The notes beneath the pieces were generated by a model. It ran no database searches, had not been told where the DNA came from, and saw only the letters and a program-made list of their open reading frames with translations. Position numbers and translations under genes: made by a program. A stretch of DNA of 64,000 bases, taken from assembly GCA_963801165.1 (NCBI GenBank), contig CAWDDT010000005.1, positions 352,001 through 416,000 on the forward strand. Direction: 5' to 3'. Shown in pieces: positions 2,956-12,750 of the stretch (positions are counted from its first letter, which is position 1; each line of letters starts with the position of its first letter). Source of the stretch: an uncultured bacterium. Its GTDB lineage: Bacteria; Actinomycetota; Acidimicrobiia; Spongiisociales; UBA5794.

Positions 2956-3744
2956 ATGGCACATGCGATTGAAGCAACAGCCGAATCGTCGATCCGGTCC
3001 CTGGTCACGCGCATCGCCGCCGGATTGATCGCGATGTTGGTTCTGGTCGGTCTCGGGTCGGCACCTGCGCTCATCGCCGGGTTCACCGACAGATCGGACG
3101 TTCATGCGTTTCACGGGTTTGAGTGGGGTACGCTGGCGGGTGTTCTGTTCGGTGGTTCGCTGCTCATCGTCGCAGTGAGCGCCGACCACTCGCAGGCTGC
3201 CGTGCGGGCGGCGCTGGCAATCGGCGTCACCTTCCTGGTGGTGGCCGTACTGGCCCGGGTCGTAGGACCCGACACGTTGAGCCCGCTGGTGCTGGCAACT
3301 GTCGTCGCGCTGCTCGGCGGTCTTCCTCTTCTCGCCGGGAACTGGCGGCCCCGCTCGCTCCCCCTCGCTCTGATGTCGCTGGCAGCGTTCGTCGCAGGGG
3401 TGATCAACGCCGCTGTCGAGATCGGCTTCCAACTGGACCGTGTCGATGTGCACTCCGCCGAGCTCCACTACGCCGGCTCCGCTGTGGTCCTTCTGGCCAT
3501 CCCCATCGTCGCATACATCGTGGCGACTCTGCCTGACGGCTACCGGCCGGTGACGTGGCTGGTCGGCTCTGCGGCGACCCTGCTTGGTCTGGGATCGTTG
3601 CTGATCCAGCGCACCGGTGCTTTTGCGGCACTACCTGCCGTGCTCATGATCGTGTGGGGGGTGGCGTTCGTCGCCATCGCCCACTCCGTGCATACGAACG
3701 CCGCGGCCGCTGCCGCCGGCTGGGGGGAGTCCCACAATGCATGA
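2956..3744 (+). CDS. Hypothetical integral membrane protein
   Basis: AAGGAGG RBS; about 8 TM segments; His-containing loops (DVHAFHG, DVHSAELH); overlaps the next gene. Confidence 0.75.
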   Translation: MAHAIEATAESSIRSLVTRIAAGLIAMLVLVGLGSAPALIAGFTDRSDVHAFHGFEWGTLAGVLFGGSLLIVAVSADHSQAAVRAALAIGVTFLVVAVLARVVGPDTLSPLVLATVVALLGGLPLLAGNWRPRSLPLALMSLAAFVAGVINAAVEIGFQLDRVDVHSAELHYAGSAVVLLAIPIVAYIVATLPDGYRPVTWLVGSAATLLGLGSLLIQRTGAFAALPAVLMIVWGVAFVAIAHSVHTNAAAAAAGWGESHNA

Positions 3745-4186
3745 ATTGCTCGTAGTCATCCACGTAATCGCCGCCATGGCGTGGGTCGGTGGAGGTCTTT
3801 ACTCGACGGTGATGTCACAGAAGGCGCTCAGCACCGGTGAGGGATTCGACTTTGTCGCCGCCCAAGCAGAACGCGCTGGTACTCGTCTATTCGCCCCGGC
3901 TTCCGTCCTGGTATTGCTGAGCGGGATCTCGATCGTGCTCACCACCGAATCGTGGCGATTCGGGCAGACATTTGTATGGTCCAGCCTCATACTCGCCGCC
4001 GTTTCATTCATCATCGGAGGCGCGTTCTACGGCCCCACCTGGAAGAAAGTCCGCCATCTCCAGCTCGAGAAGCCCGATAGCCCACAGCTCGTGGCGCTGC
4101 GCCGTCGGGTCATGAGCGTGACCCGGCTCGACACGGCGATCCTGGTCACCGTCGTCGTGCTGATGGTGACCAAGCCGGGGCTGTGA
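3737..4186 (+). CDS. DUF2269-like 4-TM membrane protein
   Basis: IHVIAAMAWVGG N-terminal motif and LMVTKP C-terminus. Confidence 0.75.
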   Translation: MHELLVVIHVIAAMAWVGGGLYSTVMSQKALSTGEGFDFVAAQAERAGTRLFAPASVLVLLSGISIVLTTESWRFGQTFVWSSLILAAVSFIIGGAFYGPTWKKVRHLQLEKPDSPQLVALRRRVMSVTRLDTAILVTVVVLMVTKPGL

Positions 4187-5499
4187 CCATGACCGAGTCG
4201 ATCTCCGTGTTCCTCGCCGACGACAATCTCCTCGTCAGAGAAGGCGTGAGGACGCTGATCGACATGGCTGGAGACTTCGAGATCGTCGGCATGGCCGGTG
4301 ACTTCGACGACCTCGTCGCCGGGGCTACCGCGACCGCGCCGCAGGTGGTGGTGACCGACATCCGTATGCCACCGGACTTCCGGCGGGAGGGCATCGAGGC
4401 GGCCAAGCTGATCCGCAGGCTGCATCCGGGAACCGGGGTCGTCGTGCTCAGCCAGTACGACGACCCCGAGTATGCCGTTTCTCTCCTCTCCGAGGGTGCC
4501 GCCGGTTATGCCTACCTGCTCAAGGACCGCGTTGCCGAGGGGGACCAACTCGCCCGCGCCATCCGTGAGGTGGCAGCGGGGGGATCACTTATCGACCCCA
4601 CCATCGTTGCCGCGCTCACCCGACCGGTGCAACCTGCTGCCGGGCTGGATCCGGAGAGCGAGCGTCTGCTCCATCTGATTGCCGAGGGCACCCCGGTGAA
4701 GGCGATCGCTCTCGCCATCGGCGCTCCCCCGGCCGATGTGGACCGTCGCATCGAGAAGCTGTTCGTGAGTCTGGCCGAGGATGTCTCCACGGGAAGCCTC
4801 GCCGCCATCGACCGTCTCAAGCTTCTCCACCGCGCCATCGTCGACCGAAAGGAGCAGGGCGAAGTGCTGTCGCGGTTGCTGCCAGGCGGTTTGGCGGACA
4901 AACTACGCAACGAGGGAAGAGCCATCGGCGAGACGGAGGAACTGGAGGTGACGGTGCTGATGTCCGACGTACGGGGATACACCACCATCGCCGAGCGCAC
5001 CCACCCCACCGTTCTCGCCGGCCAGCTCAACCGGCATCGTGCCGAGATGAACCGGGCGATCCTCGATCATGGCGGCACCGTCATGCAGTTCGTTGGAGAC
5101 GCCGTGATGGGCGTGTTCGGCGCACCCGATTCGATCCCCGACCACGCCGATTGTGCCCTGGCGGCTGCCCATGCCATGCATGCGGGCCAGCGCTCGGTCA
5201 ACCAGAACTGGCAGGCTGAAGGCCTCGAGCCTTTCGGCCTCGGGATCGGGCTCTCCTCCGGGATGGTCGCCGCCGCGCTCCTCGGCTCCGAGGAGCGAGT
5301 CGAATACAGCGTTGTCGGCGACATCGTGAACCTGACCCAACGGCTGCAGCAATGGGCCGAGCCGGGAGAAACGGTCCTCAGTGAGCCGACCTGGCGTCTG
5401 CTCGCCGGCCGACCCGACGCCGATGAGCTGGAACCGGCCACCGTCAAGGGTCGAGCCGCACCGGTGCGCGCATTTCGGGTTCCCAGGAGGGCCCGATGA
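4183..5499 (+). CDS. Response regulator receiver - degenerate LuxR HTH - class III nucleotide cyclase fusion
   Basis: REC motifs LADD, VVVTDIRMPP, LSQY, YLLK; cyclase motifs MSDVRGYT, QFVGDAVM, YSVVGDIVNLTQRL. Confidence 0.9.
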   Translation: MTMTESISVFLADDNLLVREGVRTLIDMAGDFEIVGMAGDFDDLVAGATATAPQVVVTDIRMPPDFRREGIEAAKLIRRLHPGTGVVVLSQYDDPEYAVSLLSEGAAGYAYLLKDRVAEGDQLARAIREVAAGGSLIDPTIVAALTRPVQPAAGLDPESERLLHLIAEGTPVKAIALAIGAPPADVDRRIEKLFVSLAEDVSTGSLAAIDRLKLLHRAIVDRKEQGEVLSRLLPGGLADKLRNEGRAIGETEELEVTVLMSDVRGYTTIAERTHPTVLAGQLNRHRAEMNRAILDHGGTVMQFVGDAVMGVFGAPDSIPDHADCALAAAHAMHAGQRSVNQNWQAEGLEPFGLGIGLSSGMVAAALLGSEERVEYSVVGDIVNLTQRLQQWAEPGETVLSEPTWRLLAGRPDADELEPATVKGRAAPVRAFRVPRRAR

Positions 5500-7538
5500 T
5501 CGACAGACCTCGTGTCGCCGTAGCGCGGACCATGGCGGTCTTCAGCGTCGCCTCTGCAGCCGTAGGACTCGGCTGGCTGGTCGTCATCGGAGACGGCGGT
5601 GCGGCGTGGCACGACTGGATCGTCCACAGCGCGGTCGTCGCCATCTGCGCCGGCGTGATCACATGGCTCGTCGCCCCATCTCAGCCTCGCAACGGCGCCA
5701 TCTGGGTATTGGCATGGGCGGGTCTGCTCACCGGTTTCGAGACCCTCTCCTATGCCGTCGTGGTGGAATTACAACGGATACACGGGATAGGAGGTTCGGC
5801 CCTTGACCTCGTGCCGGCCGACGTTCCCGTCTCGATGGCGCTGGTCATGCAGCAGACGAACTGGCTCTGGATCGGGGTGCTGCTGACTCTGACGTTGCTC
5901 CCGCTGTTTCCCGATGGGCATCTGCCGTCTGCCAAGTGGCGACCCGTAGTGGCGGCGCAGCTCTTCCTCATTGGTATAACCTCGCTGGGTCTCTTCTGGG
6001 AGGCGCGACCGTCGGGAACATTCGCCCTGCGTCAGACTCAGGATCTCGCCGGTGGCTTCCGCAGCGTCTCTGCCGCCTTTGTGACACTCGGCTACCCGCT
6101 CATCTTCGCCGCCGGCATCGCCGGGGTACCAGCTCTGCTGGTTCGCTACCGACACAGCACTGCGGAGGAACGCCAGCAGTTCCGGTGGGTGGCCTGGGGC
6201 GCATCGTTTCTCGGAGTCTCGCTGGTCGTCGCTCTCCTCGGAGCTGAGGTAGCGGGCCGGCTCGATGTCGCCCTCATAGCCGCGGCGATTGCCCTGGCCG
6301 CCTTCCTTGCTTCCCTTGGCATCGCCATCGGCAGGTACAGGCTCTACGACGTCGACGTCCTCATCTCGCGGTCGTTCGTGTTCGGGACGCTGGCGCTTTT
6401 CATCACGGGCGCTTACGTCGGGGTCGTCGTCGGGGTGGGAGCACTGCTCAACCTGGATCAGTCCAGCGCGGGGCTCGAGATCGTGGCCACCGCCCTGGTG
6501 GCTATCGCGTTCCAGCCGCTGCGCCGCAGGCTGCAACGCATCGCAAACCGGATCGCGTTCGGGAAACGAGCCACTCCCTATGAGGTCCTCTCGGAGTTCT
6601 CCCGCAGAGTCGCCGCGGCAGACGAGACTGCGCTGGCCGACATAGCCAGATCGCTCGTGGAAGGGACCAGTGCCACCCAGGCCGCGGTGTGGGTGGGCCG
6701 GCCCGGGAACCGGCACGCCGCCGCCAGCTGGCCGGATGCGGCCGTCGCCGAGGTGACGCTGGAGCGACCCATAGTCCACGGCGGTGAGGAGCTCGGAGCG
6801 GTGACACTGACCGCGGCTCGCGGTCTCCGGCCGGGGCCGGCCGATGCGCAATTGCTCGAGGAGGTCGCCGCCGGACTGGGGCTGGTGCTGCGAAACCTCC
6901 GGTTGAGCGACACCCTGCAGGATCGGATCGACGAGCTTCGCGCCTCGCGGCGCCGTATTGTGGCCGTGCGCGATCAGACGAGGCGCACTCTGGAGCGGGA
7001 CCTCCACGACGGCGCTCAGCAGCAACTCGTCGCCATCAAGGTGAAGCTCGGGCTCGCTCGCCAGCTGGCGGCGAAATCAGGCGCCACCGAGACAGCACAG
7101 CTCGTCGAGTCCATCGCGGCCGGAACCAATGACGCCATCGATGCTATGCGCGACTTTGCTCGCGGCATCTATCCGCCCTTGCTCGAGGCGGAAGGGCTGG
7201 CGGCGGCCCTGTCGGCGCAGATCCGAAAGCTGCAGCTCGAGGTCTCTCTGGTGGCCGATGGTTTCGGACGCAGGCGCAGCGACGTCGAGTCGACGCTGTA
7301 CTTCTGCGCCGTCGACCTGCTGACGAGTGCCAGACAAGGTGGTGCTCAGGTCCAGTTGCGCCTCGTCGCCGACGGCGAGACGGCCGGCTTCGAGCTAACC
7401 CACCCCGATGGCATGTGGTGGAATGCGTCCACCCTGACCGATCTCGCCGACCGTATCGACGCCGCAGGAGGCTCTTTTCTCGTCGATCAGACAGGCACCG
7501 GTGCCGTCGAGGTTGCGATTCCGGAGGTGGTCGGATGA
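5496..7538 (+). CDS. Membrane sensor kinase, HisKA_3 type; H-box intact, ATPase domain degenerate
   Basis: About 10 TM segments, RYRLYD motif, GAF-like region, ERDLHDGAQQQL H-box; no recognisable N, G1 or G2 box. Confidence 0.85.
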   Translation: MIDRPRVAVARTMAVFSVASAAVGLGWLVVIGDGGAAWHDWIVHSAVVAICAGVITWLVAPSQPRNGAIWVLAWAGLLTGFETLSYAVVVELQRIHGIGGSALDLVPADVPVSMALVMQQTNWLWIGVLLTLTLLPLFPDGHLPSAKWRPVVAAQLFLIGITSLGLFWEARPSGTFALRQTQDLAGGFRSVSAAFVTLGYPLIFAAGIAGVPALLVRYRHSTAEERQQFRWVAWGASFLGVSLVVALLGAEVAGRLDVALIAAAIALAAFLASLGIAIGRYRLYDVDVLISRSFVFGTLALFITGAYVGVVVGVGALLNLDQSSAGLEIVATALVAIAFQPLRRRLQRIANRIAFGKRATPYEVLSEFSRRVAAADETALADIARSLVEGTSATQAAVWVGRPGNRHAAASWPDAAVAEVTLERPIVHGGEELGAVTLTAARGLRPGPADAQLLEEVAAGLGLVLRNLRLSDTLQDRIDELRASRRRIVAVRDQTRRTLERDLHDGAQQQLVAIKVKLGLARQLAAKSGATETAQLVESIAAGTNDAIDAMRDFARGIYPPLLEAEGLAAALSAQIRKLQLEVSLVADGFGRRRSDVESTLYFCAVDLLTSARQGGAQVQLRLVADGETAGFELTHPDGMWWNASTLTDLADRIDAAGGSFLVDQTGTGAVEVAIPEVVG

Positions 7539-9577
7539 AGCGCCTGACGTGGATCGCGACGGCCACCATCGTCATCGCCAGCGTTGCGGCCGGGCTTCTC
7601 TGGAGCGACGGGACCCCGCTGCGTTCGCCATGGATGCTGCCCGCGGCGACCATGACGATCGTCGGGGCAGTGCTCACGTCGAGGGTCCCGGGCAACCCCA
7701 TCGGTCCTCTGTGCCTGTGGTTCGGTCTCGGTGCCGGTGCCACCGCGATCGTTCCTTACAGCCTCCCCTTCTCGTCTGAGAATCAGGCAGCGTGGGCAGA
7801 AGGAATAGGTAGCCTCCTCAACACAGCCTTGGTCGTGCTCACTCTGATCCCCCTCGTGATGCGTTTCCCCGACGGCCATCTGCTCGACCGTCGCTGGCGC
7901 CATGTCGAGCGGGTTGCCGTGCTGGCCGCACTACTCGGTGGGATGGCCGCCCTGATCAACAACGGTTGGGGCGGAGCGCTCGATCAGGCCGTTCGCCAGT
8001 CACCATTGCGCCCGGCATTCGGCGGATTCGCCGACACGGTCGTACCGGTCTTCTATGCGATCCTGAGCCTTCTATTCGCCATCGCCGCTCTGGCCGTGGT
8101 TCTCCGTTTTCGCCGCGCCGACGGTGACGAGCGCGAGCAATTGCGATGGCTCATGTCTGCGGCGGTGATCCTGGTCGTGGCCATCGTCGTCGCCGGACTC
8201 GGCGGCGCCAGCTCGAATGTCGATGCACTCGTGGTAGGTGGGGCGATGTCCCTCGTGCCGGTCGCCATCGCAGTTGCGGTGTTGCGCTACCGGCTCTACG
8301 ACCTCGACCTCGTCATCTCACGCACCCTCCTGTTCGGAATGCTTGTCGTCTTCATCACCGGCGTGTACGCCATTGTCGTTGTCGGGTTGGGGTCGCTTGT
8401 CGGGGGACAGAGGAATCTCGTCCTCTCGATCGGCTCGACCGCTCTTGTGGCGGTTCTCTTCGAGCCGGTTCGCACCAGAACCCAGCGTTGGGCCAACCGG
8501 CTGGTCTTTGGGCGGAAGGCGACCCCATATGAGGTATTGGCCGACCTGACGACCCGGCTGGCCGCGGCCGAGTCATACGAGGGCCTGCTCGAACGGATGG
8601 CGGCGCGCCTGGCAGATGGCATTGGGGCGGCACGCGCAGCAGTCTGGGTCGCCGAGGATGGCGGCTACCGGGCTCTTGCCGCCCATCCGCCGCTTGCGAC
8701 ACGGGAGGTTCTCGCATCGACCATCCCGGGTTGGGTCGTACCGATAGAGCACGACGAAGACACCGTGGGCGTGCTCAGTGTCGAGACCCGGCGAGGCGAG
8801 ATGCTGAGCCCTACCGAGCGCCGCCTCACTGAGGATCTGGCCGGCTCGGCTGGACTCGTCCTCAACAAAGCGAGGCTCGATGCGGCACTGGCGGCAAGGG
8901 CCGCCGATCTGGCGGAGTCGCGACGCCGTCTCGTCGGGGCTGAGGACGCCGAGCGCCGCCACCACGAACAGATTCTCGAAGGCGGGGTGCAGCAGCAACT
9001 GGTCGCCATCAAGCTGCGGCTCGGGATGGCCTCCAGGACCGCGATCGAGGAAGGGGCCGATGCGGTCGGGCAACTACTTCAGGGGATAACCGGTGACGCG
9101 CAGGCCGCTATCGACCAGGTGCGAACGCTGGCCCGAGGCATCTTCCCCCCGCTGCTCGAGACCGAGGGCCTCCGGGCGGCGCTCATCGCGGCCATCGAGC
9201 AGGCTCCGGTCGAGGCTCGGGCCAACATCGACGATGTGGACAGGTTGCCCCGGGATATCGAGGGTGCCGTGTACTTCACCATGTTGGAGGCGATCACCAA
9301 CGCGGTCAAACACGCCGTCGGCCCGATCCACGTGGATCTTCATCGCCGCAAAGACGTTATCGAGTTTGCCGTGGCGGACACCGGCCCCGGTTTCGACCCC
9401 GCGCTCGCTTCGCCCGGTTCGGGCATGGCCAACCTCGCCGACCGGGTCGAGACCGCGGGAGGTGTGTTGCGCATCGAAGCCGCCCCGGGATCACCAACGG
9501 TGATCGCCGGGCGGATCCCCGTCGCCGAGACCACACATATCGCGGCGGCCTCGTACCAGGCCACGGCTCTTGAGTAG
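7535..9577 (+). CDS. Membrane sensor kinase, HisKA_3 type; ATPase intact, phospho-His replaced by Glu
   Basis: Start MKRLTW overlaps the upstream stop (ATGA); EQILEGGVQQQL at the H-box position; EAITNAVKHA, DTGPGF and GSGMANL boxes present. Confidence 0.85.
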   Translation: MKRLTWIATATIVIASVAAGLLWSDGTPLRSPWMLPAATMTIVGAVLTSRVPGNPIGPLCLWFGLGAGATAIVPYSLPFSSENQAAWAEGIGSLLNTALVVLTLIPLVMRFPDGHLLDRRWRHVERVAVLAALLGGMAALINNGWGGALDQAVRQSPLRPAFGGFADTVVPVFYAILSLLFAIAALAVVLRFRRADGDEREQLRWLMSAAVILVVAIVVAGLGGASSNVDALVVGGAMSLVPVAIAVAVLRYRLYDLDLVISRTLLFGMLVVFITGVYAIVVVGLGSLVGGQRNLVLSIGSTALVAVLFEPVRTRTQRWANRLVFGRKATPYEVLADLTTRLAAAESYEGLLERMAARLADGIGAARAAVWVAEDGGYRALAAHPPLATREVLASTIPGWVVPIEHDEDTVGVLSVETRRGEMLSPTERRLTEDLAGSAGLVLNKARLDAALAARAADLAESRRRLVGAEDAERRHHEQILEGGVQQQLVAIKLRLGMASRTAIEEGADAVGQLLQGITGDAQAAIDQVRTLARGIFPPLLETEGLRAALIAAIEQAPVEARANIDDVDRLPRDIEGAVYFTMLEAITNAVKHAVGPIHVDLHRRKDVIEFAVADTGPGFDPALASPGSGMANLADRVETAGGVLRIEAAPGSPTVIAGRIPVAETTHIAAASYQATALE

Positions 9578-9606: not shown

Positions 9607-10323
9607 ATGAGCACCCACGACAAGCACGTAGTAGCCGAAGAGCCCGCGACCGGGGCCAATGCCACCTCCGAGAGTGAGGAGATGTTCCTCATCACGGTGG
9701 CGCGGGCCATCGAAGACGGACATCCCAGCCCGGTGCCGGTTCCGCTCCTCGCCGACAAGCTGTCCATATCGCGGGTGTCGGCAAACGAGATGACCAAGAA
9801 GCTGGTTGGTAGGGGCTTTGTCGAGTACGAGCCCTATCGCGGGGTCACGCTCACCGCTACGGGAACCGCCGTAGCCAACCGGGTCCTGCGCCGCCGCAGG
9901 CTCTGGGCACTGTTTCTCGCCGAGCATCTTGGTCTGTCCCCTACGGCGGCCGACACCGTTGCCTGCGAGTTCGAGCACATCACGCCGGCGGAGGTAGCCA
10001 CCCGTCTTGCGGGCTTTCTCGGCGACCCTTCGGTCGATCCCGAAGGCAAACCGATACCGGCCGCCGGCAGCTCGATGGGCAACGGCCCGCTCGATCTGGC
10101 TCTTGCCGACCTCGGGGTGGGTCGTCAGAGCGTGGTCACCCGCATCGCCGCTGATTCGGCGATCCGCTCGTTTCTCGAGGATGAGGGAATAGCCGAAGGA
10201 ACCGTGATCACCCTCCTGGCCGTTGGCTCGGACCATGGTTGTCTGGTCGATGGCGGCAACGGCCACGTGCATATGTCGGCCGGGGTTGCAGCCCACGTGC
10301 TCGTCGCTCCGGTGGCCAACTGA
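9607..10323 (+). CDS. DtxR/MntR family metal-dependent regulator with C-terminal FeoA-like domain
   Basis: EEMFL, wHTH with SRVSANEM, YEPYRGVTLT, ACEFEH, DPEGKPIP. Confidence 0.88.
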   Translation: MSTHDKHVVAEEPATGANATSESEEMFLITVARAIEDGHPSPVPVPLLADKLSISRVSANEMTKKLVGRGFVEYEPYRGVTLTATGTAVANRVLRRRRLWALFLAEHLGLSPTAADTVACEFEHITPAEVATRLAGFLGDPSVDPEGKPIPAAGSSMGNGPLDLALADLGVGRQSVVTRIAADSAIRSFLEDEGIAEGTVITLLAVGSDHGCLVDGGNGHVHMSAGVAAHVLVAPVAN

Positions 10324-10331
10324 CCCTCGAC

Positions 10332-10371
10332 TTGACAACATCTCCACCCCGCCTAGATTAGGGCGCCTTAA
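10332..10371 (+). promoter_or_regulatory. Sigma70-type promoter (TTGACA-16-TAGATT) overlapped by a DtxR/MntR-like box TTAGGGCGCCTTAA
   Basis: TTGACA 10332-10337, TAGATT 10354-10359; near-palindrome at 10358-10371 resembling TTAGG-N4-CCTAA, upstream of efeU. Confidence 0.6.
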
Positions 10372-10407
10372 ACAATCGTGTAAGTGTGAGTTAATAACCG
10401 GGTAGGC

Positions 10408-11265
10408 ATGTTCTCCAACTTCCTGATCGGCCTCCGCGAAGGTCTCGAGGCGGTCCTCGTCGTCAGCATCCTGGTTGCGTACCTCGTCAAATCGGGCCGG
10501 GGCGACCAACTGACACGCGTCTGGACCGGAGCAGGTATCGCCGTCGCCGTTTCCCTCGCGACCGGCGCCCTCCTCACCTTCGGCCCGCGCGGTCTGACCT
10601 TCGAAGCCCAGGAGGCCATCGGTGGGTTTCTGTCGCTCCTTGCAGTCGGCTTCATCACGTGGATGATCTTCTGGATGGCCCGGACCGCCCGCAATCTGAA
10701 GGGCGAACTCGAGGAGCAAGCCGGCCTGGCCATCAGTGCCGGCAAATGGGGACTCGTGCTGGTGGCGGCACTGGCCGTCGGTAGGGAGGGTCTGGAGACT
10801 GCTCTGTTCCTATGGACCGCTACTAAGGCGGCGGGGTCCACGCTCGAACCCCTGGTGGGTGCTTTCTTCGGCCTGGCCACTGCGGTAATCCTCGGGCTGC
10901 TCATACACCGTGGTGCGGTGCGGATAGATCTGCGGCGGTTCTTCTCGGTAACCGGAGCCCTGCTGATCATCGTCGCTGCCGGTGTGCTGTCCTACGGGAT
11001 CCACGACCTGCAAGAAGCGGGAATACTCCCCGGTCTCGGTGCGGTGGCGTTCGATGTCTCTGGCGCGATTCCACCGTCGTCGTGGTACGGCACGCTGCTC
11101 AAGGGAACGATCAACTTCTCGCCCCGGTCCACATGGCTCGAGACGGTCACCTGGCTGGCCTACACCATCCCGGTGCTCACCGCATTCATCCGCAAGGTGC
11201 GCCCAACACGACCGGTGCCGGGACGATCTGCCGTGCCGGCGGCGACCTCAGGAGCCGCCCGATGA
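10408..11265 (+). CDS. efeU: FTR1-family iron permease (EfeU-like)
   Basis: Two REGLE motifs, about 7 TM, HDLQEAG. Confidence 0.9.
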   Translation: MFSNFLIGLREGLEAVLVVSILVAYLVKSGRGDQLTRVWTGAGIAVAVSLATGALLTFGPRGLTFEAQEAIGGFLSLLAVGFITWMIFWMARTARNLKGELEEQAGLAISAGKWGLVLVAALAVGREGLETALFLWTATKAAGSTLEPLVGAFFGLATAVILGLLIHRGAVRIDLRRFFSVTGALLIIVAAGVLSYGIHDLQEAGILPGLGAVAFDVSGAIPPSSWYGTLLKGTINFSPRSTWLETVTWLAYTIPVLTAFIRKVRPTRPVPGRSAVPAATSGAAR

Positions 11266-11630
11266 CGCGTCGCACCCTGCTCGCTGCCCTCGCCGTCATG
11301 TCCCTTGCGGTGAGTGGTTGCACCAGCAACGGCGACGCGACCACCACCGTCGAGGTGGTCAGCACCGATAAGGAGTGCCGGGTCGCCGCGACGCAAGCAC
11401 CGGTGGGAACGATCACCTTCGATGTGCGCAATGATGGCAACGACGTAACGGAGTTCTACCTGTATGACGAAGATGGTGCGAAGGTGGTCGGTGAGGTGGA
11501 GAACATCGGCCCCGGCGTCACTCGATCGATGGTCGTCGAAGCGGTGGTGGGCTCCTATGAGACCGCATGCAAGCCGGGGATGGCCGGAGACGGGATAAGA
11601 GCCGCGTTCGAGGTGGTGGACACCGGGTGA
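11262..11630 (+). CDS. Cupredoxin-domain lipoprotein (EfeO N-terminal-like domain only)
   Basis: Lipobox VSGC; TEFY, GEVENIGPG, ACKPGM motifs; ATG overlaps the efeU stop. Confidence 0.82.
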   Translation: MTRRTLLAALAVMSLAVSGCTSNGDATTTVEVVSTDKECRVAATQAPVGTITFDVRNDGNDVTEFYLYDEDGAKVVGEVENIGPGVTRSMVVEAVVGSYETACKPGMAGDGIRAAFEVVDTG

Positions 11631-11642
11631 CATCTGGCCGGG

Positions 11643-12008
11643 TCAGTCGAATATGAGGCTCCACGGGCCAAACTCGGCTTTCGACACAAAGCCGACCGCC
11701 CCGGCCTCGAGAGCGCGCGACTCGTACTCGGCGCTTTCATAAGTCGAGACCACGAGCACCGCAATATCGGGAAACTCGCTGACGATGCGTCTGGTTGCCT
11801 CGAGCCCGTCGATGCCGGGCAGGTTTATGTCCATCAGAACCAGGTCGGGGGCCGTAGCCGCGATCTTGTCGAGCGCCTCTTCAGCCGAGCCCGCCTCGCC
11901 GGCGAACTCAACTCCGTCCGCCAGCTCGACGACGAGTGCCGCCGCCTGACGGAAGGGAGCCTGGTCATCTACGATCAGGACTCGACGCACCTGCTGATCC
12001 AACTTCAT
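11643..12008 (-). CDS. Single-domain response regulator (receiver only)
   Basis: VLIVDD, LVLMDINLPGIDG, VSTY, FVSK; no output domain. Confidence 0.85.
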   Translation of the reverse strand: MKLDQQVRRVLIVDDQAPFRQAAALVVELADGVEFAGEAGSAEEALDKIAATAPDLVLMDINLPGIDGLEATRRIVSEFPDIAVLVVSTYESAEYESRALEAGAVGFVSKAEFGPWSLIFD

Positions 12009-12087
12009 ACCCCCATTGTCATCCAAGCCCGGCGGCTCACCAAGGGCACAGGCACCACACCGGCCGGTGTGGTTTTCCACACCGCTG

Positions 12088-12750
12088 TCACGTCGTCTCG
12101 CCCAGAAATAGAAGCACCGCCTTGACCCGCCGGTTGCCGTCGACGTTTGCTAGTAGATCGAGCTTGGTGAAGATCGAGTTGATGTGCTTCTCCACTGCCC
12201 GCTCCGAGAGGAATAGATCGGCGGCGATGCCGGCATTGGTGCCGCCGGCGGCGACGTGCTCGAGCACTTCCCGCTCCCGGCCCGTCAGCCGTTCCAACTT
12301 GGAACGGCGTCCGGCACTCCGTCCCGCCAGCAACGCGTCGACGACCTTCGGGTCGATCCTCGAACCACCAACCGCAACCCGCTCGATGGCGTCCACCAGC
12401 TCGTTCGCATCACCGAGGCGCTCCTTGAGCAGGTAGGCGAAACCGGAAGACCCGTCCTCCAGCAGGCGGATCGCATACTCCGGCTCGACGTACTGACTCA
12501 GCACGACAACACCGATGTCGGGGTGCAGAGCCCGAATCTCCCGCGCCGCCTTGATGCCCTCGTCGGTACGGCTCGGCGGCATCCTGATGTCGGTAACGAC
12601 AACGTCAGGATGGTGCATCTCGACCGCTTCCAGCAGCTCGTAGTAATTCTCGGCAGTAGCCAGCAGCTCGTACCCGGCGCTTTCCAGCACCAGCTTCTCC
12701 CCCTCGCGTACGATGTAGCTGTCTTCGGCGAGCACCAGCTTGAGACCCAT
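12088..12750 (-). CDS. NarL/LuxR family DNA-binding response regulator
   Basis: REC (VVVTDIRMPP) plus LuxR HTH LTGREREVL...AVEKHINSIFTKL. Confidence 0.93.
   Translation of the reverse strand: MGLKLVLAEDSYIVREGEKLVLESAGYELLATAENYYELLEAVEMHHPDVVVTDIRMPPSRTDEGIKAAREIRALHPDIGVVVLSQYVEPEYAIRLLEDGSSGFAYLLKERLGDANELVDAIERVAVGGSRIDPKVVDALLAGRSAGRRSKLERLTGREREVLEHVAAGGTNAGIAADLFLSERAVEKHINSIFTKLDLLANVDGNRRVKAVLLFLGETT

Follow-up and report, generated by a model that had tools for sequence, protein, structure and literature searches.

Histidine kinases are textbook homodimers, and whether the two active sites act in trans, and only one at any moment, was settled using laboratory mutants deficient in either the acceptor His or the ATP-binding site. 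What, then, is to be made of two adjacent kinase genes that carry these same two defects by nature? The question is raised by a stretch of 64,000 nucleotides from an uncultured bacterium of the class Acidimicrobiia (GenBank assembly GCA_963801165.1, contig CAWDDT010000005.1, positions 352,001 to 416,000; below, the window). Here, two tandem genes on the plus strand encode the multi-transmembrane sensor kinase paralogs HK1 (5496..7538), with an acceptor His and a dead ATPase-like domain, and HK2 (7535..9577), with an intact ATPase and no acceptor His. This observation is confirmed by the analysis below. Comparison with related loci suggests that HK1 and HK2 probably form one obligate heteromeric kinase, in which the ATPase of HK2 would phosphorylate His504 of HK1 in trans. 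Such complementation is the best available interpretation of the two genes, and it is much strengthened by conservation and recurrence of the pattern.

Reciprocal losses in two coupled paralogs

Both kinases are 680 amino acids long and contain zero internal stop codons. The genes are joined by ATGA overlaps at both junctions, that is, at 5496-5499 between the preceding receiver-cyclase gene and HK1, and at 7535-7538 between HK1 and HK2, and Shine-Dalgarno-like sequences are found ahead of HK1 (aggagg, 5485-5490) and HK2 (ggaggtgg, 7523-7530). The list of open reading frames (ORFs) starts HK2 at an earlier GTG; the in-frame ATG at 7535 yields 680 amino acids and an end-to-end alignment with HK1 (35% identity over 678 aligned columns, E 4e-89). 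The two proteins share a layout of some 7-9 hydrophobic segments, a weak GAF-like match, a DHp domain (for dimerization and histidine phosphotransfer), and a C-terminal alpha/beta domain. The motif RYRLYD is present in both, at residues 280-285 of HK1 and 251-256 of HK2. An earlier reading of the locus, made from the sequence only, had described translationally coupled, full-length paralogs of this layout, free of frameshifts and with complementary defects. All of these features are found again, and the positions given for the acceptor codon of HK1 (CAC, 7005-7007), the corresponding codon of HK2 (GAA, 8978-8980), and a nearby His pair (8960-8965) are all correct on the DNA.

HK1 retains the H-box ERDLHDG (6993..7013; this and all further positions within the two kinases are on the plus strand), where His504 is encoded at 7005-7007. 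Pfam assigns residues 496-561 to HisKA_3 (E 2e-11, 44.7 bits), and the profile of HK1-type kinases, called HKa below, places this His on His188 of DesK. The ATPase boxes are missing, as the sequence-only reading had claimed. In the C-terminal domain (residues 571-680; 7206..7535), Ser replaces Asn at the N-box position (7317-7337), the G1 position reads THPDGMWWN (7398-7424), and the G2 position reads ASTLTDL (7425-7445), the glycines of G1 and G2 being gone, and HK1 thus has no ATP-binding domain with N, G1, and G2 boxes. The Pfam scan of HK1 gives no HATPase_c family match even at E<=1, and its C-terminus has no match among PDB sequences at E<=0.01. Nevertheless, the AlphaFold2 model of the C-terminal 250 amino acids (mean predicted local distance difference test score, pLDDT, 80.7) has DesK as its best fold match, and resembles the catalytic and ATP-binding (CA) domain of VraS (template modeling score TMt 0.71, root-mean-square deviation 2.4). 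Similarly, the profile of HK1-type C-termini aligns with DesK across DHp and CA, with an eight-residue gap in the ATP-lid region. Because the model still matches the DesK and VraS folds, HK1 is predicted to carry a pseudo-ATPase domain rather than a deletion.

In HK2 the ATP-binding motifs are complete (9287..9436): the N-box EAITNAVKHA with Asn589, the G1 box DTGPGF (residues 615-620), and the G2 box GSGMANL (628-634), and Pfam recognizes both HATPase_c (E 6.1e-7) and HATPase_c_2 (E 3.4e-8). It is the acceptor that is lost, since in the degenerate H-box EQILEGG (8966..8986) Glu482 (codon 8978-8980) stands in place of the His, followed by Gly at +1. The HisKA_3 match, accordingly, begins only at profile position 13, past the H-box (E 8.9e-5), and scores 23.4 bits for the whole protein and 25.5 bits for the C-terminal fragment against a cut-off of 24. 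Thus the Pfam comparison proposed with the sequence-only reading finds HisKA_3 alone in HK1, and HATPase_c with an H-box-truncated HisKA_3 in HK2. The nearest solved structures to HK2 are VraS and DesK; the best DesK chain is the engineered H188E variant (DesKC_H188E), and Glu482 falls on its residue 188. Judged by sequence, an acceptor His and a competent ATPase do not occur together in either partner.

Two residues of HK2, His476-His477 (8960..8965), located at -6 and -5 from Glu482, had been named as a possible alternative acceptor. This is unlikely, as the pair is not conserved, its columns reading K-L and R-L in the nearest rows of the HK2 clade, and, judging by helix geometry, residues at -6 and -5 would be off the face of position 0.

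Recurrence of the reciprocal pattern in related genomes

Among 41 genomes around that of the window, 23 have a match at E<=1e-20, and the order cyclase regulator, kinase, kinase is repeated in several genera. The window's own genome contains, besides HK1 and HK2, only three much weaker relatives of HK1 (E 1e-28 to 5e-18). The reciprocal pattern is repeated in genomes G021 and G025, and in G036 the second kinase is intact. Genomes G015 and G023 show intermediate states, with an intact HKa and His replaced by Asn in the second, HK2-type kinase (HKb). The matches in G027 and G038 are weak and support no claim.

The wider scan was anchored on the receiver-cyclase, which is far better conserved than the kinases, with one genome per species. 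It yielded 596 stretches, from which the best 80 loci (63-73% identity) were kept; these are mostly labeled Acidimicrobiia, with some Nitriliruptorales, Nocardioidaceae, Streptosporangiaceae, Dormibacteria, and Gaiellaceae. ORFs were called in these loci, and the His, N-box, G1, and G2 columns were read in 81 kinase C-termini spanning DHp-CA. A five-gene module is repeated in Acidimicrobiia and groups close to them; it encodes the receiver-cyclase, HKa, HKb, a single receiver, and a NarL-type regulator. In related loci the last two genes are convergent with the kinases and directly follow the second of them.

A first kinase with His and without the ATPase, followed by a second kinase with Asp instead of His and with the ATPase, is found in L057, L062, L063, L067, L068, L071, L076 (two pairs), L080, L082, and L099, where L063 and L071 are on the same contigs as the loci of G013 and G024 and were counted once. 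The first kinases of L053 and L087 are of the same type, and the next gene is cut by the contig end. All adjacent kinases are intact in L048, L050, and L125, with two kinases each, and in L106, with three, and many loci have one more distant intact kinase or none. Finally, a His-less kinase with ATPase stands beside an intact kinase or an unreadable neighbor in L075 (Gly at the His position), L102 (Ala), L056 and L086 (Ala; neighbor cut or also Ala), and L113 (Arg).

Thus 16 full-length kinases have retained His and lost the ATPase. The downstream gene is readable for 13 of them, and in all 13 cases it is a His-less paralog with an ATPase, directly next; this is the pairing that the sequence-only reading had suggested looking for in related genomes. 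The 13 cases are the window, the 11 pairs in the 10 loci listed above, and L038, and the remaining three kinases (L039, L053, L087) are cut by the contig end. Two of the 13 are flawed: the second kinase of L038 is split over two ORFs, and the first kinase of L080 is in one open frame for its C-terminal 384 codons only. Scans of the last 250 amino acids with Pfam agree with the motif readings, HisKA_3 being found in 15/15 and HATPase_c in 1/15 (E 4.5e-4) of the HKa type, and HATPase_c in 14/14 and HisKA_3 in 11/14 of the HKb type.

In the pairs read here, the residue at the His position follows the state of the partner. It is acidic, Asp or Glu, in all 13 second kinases whose partner has lost the ATPase, and Asn, Asn, Gly, and Ala in the four with a readable intact partner, one of these pairings (G023) being inferred across two contig ends. 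The profile of second-type C-termini matches 11,237 library proteins at E<=1e-30. The best 150 of these contain 166 DHp-CA modules, with His in 122, Asp in 20, Arg in 8, Asn in 7, Gln in 3, Ser in 2, and Gly, Leu, Glu, or Ala in one each. Since 20 of these 166 modules have Asp, the Asp type is, on this comparison, a sizeable family of its own.

Among the same 150 library representatives, 16 have two tandem DHp-CA modules in a single chain, and in several of the tandem chains (P0014, P0019, P0021, P0053, P0090) the first module is without both His and ATP-binding motifs. Such chains may correspond, in fused form, to the arrangement in two genes.

The distribution of partners bears on another explanation of the pair, in which HK2 would be a pseudokinase that acts as a modulator or phosphatase and donates no phosphate, and HK1 would serve as a phosphatase or in phosphotransfer, receiving phosphate from a different kinase or, via the receivers, from small phosphodonors. 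There are precedents for such roles in DivL, a His-less kinase acting as a modulator, and in RetS, which inhibits GacS through heterodimerization (PMC12189002). The partner of a modulator should be catalytically complete. HK1 is not, but in G015, G023, L075, and L102 a His-less paralog does stand beside a fully intact kinase that needs no help. Further, in L105 (4507-6675) and L124 (8611-9408) the receiver-cyclase gene is followed by a short soluble protein whose H-box is intact and which lacks ATP-binding motifs, with no ATPase-bearing paralog nearby. HK1 itself retains the D and Q of the HDGAQQQ stretch, which we take to be the phosphatase motif of HisKA_3 kinases. On the other hand, a modulator role leaves unexplained why every ATP-binding motif is kept in 14/14 HKb, and why HKa lose the ATPase only where a His-less partner with an ATPase is next (13/13). 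The window's genome, besides, has only the three much weaker relatives of HK1. We consider this explanation rather unlikely.

A candidate heteromeric kinase

Since the ATPase is intact in every HKb and its own His is absent, HKb would need an external acceptor; since the His is kept in every HKa and its own ATPase is absent, HKa would need a foreign ATPase. Given these complementary needs in coupled paralogs of a dimeric enzyme, one heteromeric kinase is the simplest reading. We propose that HK1 and HK2 are subunits of one HisKA_3 kinase of the DesK/NarX type, most likely a heterodimer formed via the DHp helices. HK2 would bind ATP and then phosphorylate His504 of HK1, and phosphorylated HK1 could pass the phosphate to one or more of three receivers, those of the receiver-cyclase, the single receiver, and the NarL-type regulator. 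Because the membrane parts of both kinases are retained, integration of two inputs, the AND gate of the sequence-only reading, is possible.

The acidic residue of the second kinase, Glu here and Asp elsewhere, could mimic phospho-His and in this way build in the asymmetry of active kinase dimers. A built-in mimic would fit the acidic residues in 13/13 second kinases beside ATPase-less partners as against Asn, Asn, Gly, and Ala beside intact ones. More speculatively, in this kinase family of Actinomycetota a duplicated homodimer may have been turned repeatedly into an obligate asymmetric heterodimer, in which one subunit has only the acceptor His left and the other only the ATPase, with Asp or Glu as a permanent mimic that locks the kinase-competent shape, a shape that DesK would reach only after phosphorylation; we regard this extension as doubtful, though worth considering.

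Prediction of the HK1/HK2 complex gives a median interaction prediction score from aligned errors (ipSAE) of 0.58 (0.58, 0.56, and 0.60 in the three runs), compared to 0.00 for the best control, which is weak support for the pairing. In the benchmark, the ipSAE mark is reached by 58/80 solved complexes and 2/110 mismatched pairs; values of at most 0.60 belong to 7/80 solved complexes and to both mismatches that pass, and since kinase dimers have been solved, the pass of HK1/HK2 may come from their having been memorized by the predictor. At least 94% of contacts are common to the runs, with a partner pLDDT of at least 76. We count the prediction neither for nor against the pairing.

Another explanation with the same chemistry is an assembly of homodimers, in which an HK2 dimer phosphorylates an HK1 dimer within a transient or higher-order complex, as CheA4 does with CheA3, or as LadS feeds GacS. 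Neither CheA3 nor CheA4 autophosphorylates alone, and their mixture does (PMC3591291). The present data, including the weak complex prediction, do not separate a heterodimer from a complex of dimers. Yet both kinases have a full DHp, well conserved within the clades (71% and 67% mean identity), and translational coupling of paralogs favors co-assembly. In addition, P1 of the CheA type is a mobile substrate, while a DHp His buried in a homodimer would be a poor substrate for a foreign CA. An assembly of homodimers appears quite unlikely to us. The sequence-only reading had held that only an HK1/HK2 heterodimer would be active. Complementarity is backed by the recurrence in 13/13 cases, the fixation of the pattern in a large sister clade and its repeated origin, both described below, and the unconserved His pair; the restriction to a heterodimer goes further than these data, as a complex of homodimers would look the same.

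Origin of the pattern and selection on the pair

A quick maximum-likelihood tree was built from 82 rows and 463 columns, with Shimodaira-Hasegawa-like approximate likelihood ratio test (SH-aLRT) support only. The uniformly reciprocal pairs form two separate clades, one with 14 rows that have His and no ATPase, the other with 11 rows that have Asp for His and an ATPase, both with SH-aLRT 99. The window's kinases are in other clades, each of seven rows (support 97 for HK1 and 96 for HK2). A single clade for all 16 ATPase-less rows is 67 log-likelihood units worse and is rejected by the approximately unbiased (AU) test (p-AU 0.003). The tested group was chosen with the tree already in view; the alignment still included the degenerate columns, which, if anything, draw the ATPase-less rows together. 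The tree and the AU test indicate that the ATPase was lost more than once. The fully reciprocal state appears to have arisen about three times: in the large clade pair, in the window, and in the second pair of L076, whose branches are long. The existence of intermediates, with an intact HKa and Asn for His in HKb, suggests that the His of the second gene was lost first, and then the ATPase of the first.

Two peculiarities of the tree concern gene arrangement. Of the Asp-type pairs, the first-gene clade joins the second-gene clade of the window, and the second-gene clade joins the window's first-gene clade (SH-aLRT 93 and 87); either the two genes exchanged places once they had been duplicated, or the tree does not resolve its deep branches. 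In L076 (2992-13590), reciprocal pairs from different clades are located both upstream and downstream of one receiver-cyclase gene.

The domains of the paired kinases are under unequal constraint. Mean pairwise identity in the first-gene clade (His present, ATPase lost) is 29% in the membrane part, 52% in the linker/GAF region, 71% in DHp, and 39% in the C-terminal domain; the corresponding values in the second-gene clade (Asp for His, ATPase present) are 29%, 63%, 67%, and 58%. The dead ATPase domain is relaxed yet retained, and conservation is highest in the His-bearing DHp. As to the pair of the window itself, a metagenome scan with HK1 found three loci, of which only one is a true relative; it is 99% identical and shares all motif states. 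Compared with this contig, HK1 has 12 synonymous and 8 non-synonymous codons, the latter all in codons 535-665, and HK2 has 25 synonymous and 9 non-synonymous codons. The ratio of non-synonymous to synonymous differences per site (pN/pS) comes to 0.15 in HK1 codons 1-570, rises to 0.31 in the pseudo-ATPase domain, and is 0.14 in HK2, all from small counts. Contigs of four runs from four studies, with soil and salt-marsh metagenome labels, cover the pair and have no indels.

Several observations weigh against a heteromeric kinase or reduce the force of the evidence for it. The ATPase motifs are kept in 5/7 rows of the window's HK1 clade; the His column of the HK2 clade has His in 3/7 rows, and Asn in two, Asp in one, and Glu in one. 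The exact state of the window is common only to the 99%-identical contig, and the metagenome scan found no moderately diverged ortholog of the pair, so that long-term selection on this pair is not shown. The 13/13 association amounts to about three independent events rather than 13, and the correlation of acidic residues with ATPase-less partners likewise rests on three origins. The short partnerless proteins of L105 and L124 do not fit a model of pairs. Finally, autophosphorylation in trans is taken for this subfamily from DesK, and the proposal as a whole is built on sequence comparison.

Since its own clades are mostly intact, the window's state is lineage-specific, though not decaying. Under decay, redundant paralogs would be gathering inactivating changes on the way to loss, and the sequence-only reading had taken mostly intact orthologs as the sign of such strain-specific decay. 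The orthologs are indeed mostly intact, and all eight non-synonymous differences of HK1 lie in or just before the dead ATPase domain. The decay itself is not seen, as both full-length ORFs are free of stops and frameshifts, in the window as well as in L126 and the contigs of the four runs, and pN/pS stays at 0.14-0.31. Moreover, the defects are exactly reciprocal, not random, and a large sister clade has stably inherited this end state. We consider decay very improbable.

Comparison with known kinases

The same division of labor reportedly underlies the in vitro complementation of His-minus by ATP-binding-minus laboratory mutants of EnvZ, NtrB, and CheA. In Mycobacterium tuberculosis, Rv0600c and Rv0601c are said to have the ATPase and the His on separate subunits, split there into domain-sized proteins, not full-length paralogs.

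Of published systems, FasB/FasC of group A Streptococcus (fasBCAX; Mol Microbiol 2025) comes closest; here, genetics and two-hybrid data support a heterodimer (PMC12675982). FasC H246 is required and the FasC kinase domain is dispensable, and the authors propose that FasB supplies the kinase domain (PMC12675982). As in the receiver-cyclase/HK1/HK2 operon, adjacent multi-transmembrane kinase-like genes are joined with a regulator gene in one operon. Unlike HK1 and HK2, both Fas proteins are predicted to have DHp and HATPase, and FasB has a candidate His (H284), so that the asymmetry of Fas came to light through genetics and cannot be read from the motifs, as that of HK1/HK2 can. The Fas regulator is ComE-like, whereas HisKA_3 kinases are found here with NarL-type, single-receiver, and cyclase regulators. 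The membrane part of FasB is dispensable, and here both sensor regions are kept. Fas is the system of one species, and the pattern described here recurs across many lineages.

CheA3/CheA4 of Rhodobacter sphaeroides is a biochemically proven split kinase, in which the ATP-binding partner phosphorylates the His-bearing one, which serves the regulator and is a phosphatase (PMC3591291). These proteins are soluble array components without whole domains (P1, or P3-P4), whereas HK1 and HK2 are full-length membrane sensors that have kept all domains and lost only motifs.

By both sequence and fold, the nearest solved relative is DesK from Bacillus subtilis (PDB 3gie, 3gif, 5iuj, and others), which, unlike HK1 and HK2, is a complete homodimeric kinase. 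In its structures the CA of one protomer is on the DHp helix alpha1 of the other, H188E is phosphomimetic, and phosphorylated or H188E DesK is highly asymmetric (PMC5231405). Glu482 of HK2 is thus the laboratory H188E change occurring naturally, and paired with a partner that lacks ATP binding.

Pairing of paralogous or unrelated sensor kinases through DHp is known for GacS/RetS of Pseudomonas and for ChrS/HrrS, paralogous actinobacterial kinases of Corynebacterium that heterodimerize in two-hybrid assays (PMC9491836). RetS inhibits a complete kinase, and ChrS and HrrS are each complete, so reciprocal loss is seen in neither case. Streptomyces AbrC1/AbrC2, two kinases with one regulator, were considered as a parallel and rejected, since both have His and both autophosphorylate (PMC4428217). 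In the literature searched, which mostly left out subscription journals and supplementary survey tables, we found no description of reciprocal loss of His and ATPase motifs in paired full-length kinases.

Relative to the known heteromeric and split histidine kinases, the pairs described here constitute an unusually clean natural experiment. Nature appears to have fixed the two classical mutant types as a gene pair, more than once, and intermediates are alive in related genomes. Such pairs could serve as a ready-made system for trans-phosphorylation and half-of-sites asymmetry, and make it possible to probe what a negative charge does at the place of the His. They also bear on the transition from homomer to obligate heteromer after duplication, where constructive neutral evolution may be set against selection for two sensory inputs. 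In genome annotation, automatic counts of "kinases" and of "orphan or pseudo kinases" in Actinomycetota misread these pairs.

Gene neighborhood

The first gene of the conserved module is that of the receiver-cyclase (4183..5499, plus strand), consisting of a receiver domain (Response_reg, E 1.4e-14), a GerE-like stretch, and a class III nucleotide cyclase domain (Guanylate_cyc, E 4.6e-20). The two remaining members are convergent with the kinases on the minus strand. The single-domain receiver gene (11643..12080) has 49-63% identical homologs directly after HKb in related loci, and the NarL/LuxR-type response regulator gene (12088..12750) has 58-67% identical homologs that adjoin the single receiver downstream of HKb. 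In the window they are separated from HK2 by three genes (9607-11630): one for a FeoA-containing regulator of the DtxR family, one for a permease that resembles FTR1 by eye, and a small ORF. These genes have no counterpart in related loci, and look like an insertion into the module. Directly upstream of the module are two genes for membrane proteins (2956-4186), neither of which is present in related loci; the second belongs to DUF2269 (E 1.2e-8) and overlaps the start of the receiver-cyclase gene by 4 bases.

Inspection by eye shows the metal-binding Asp residues in the receiver-cyclase. Its base-specifying residues are unusual: the first position, which is Lys in adenylyl cyclases and Glu in the guanylyl cyclase Cya2, is occupied by Gln, and the second by Ser.

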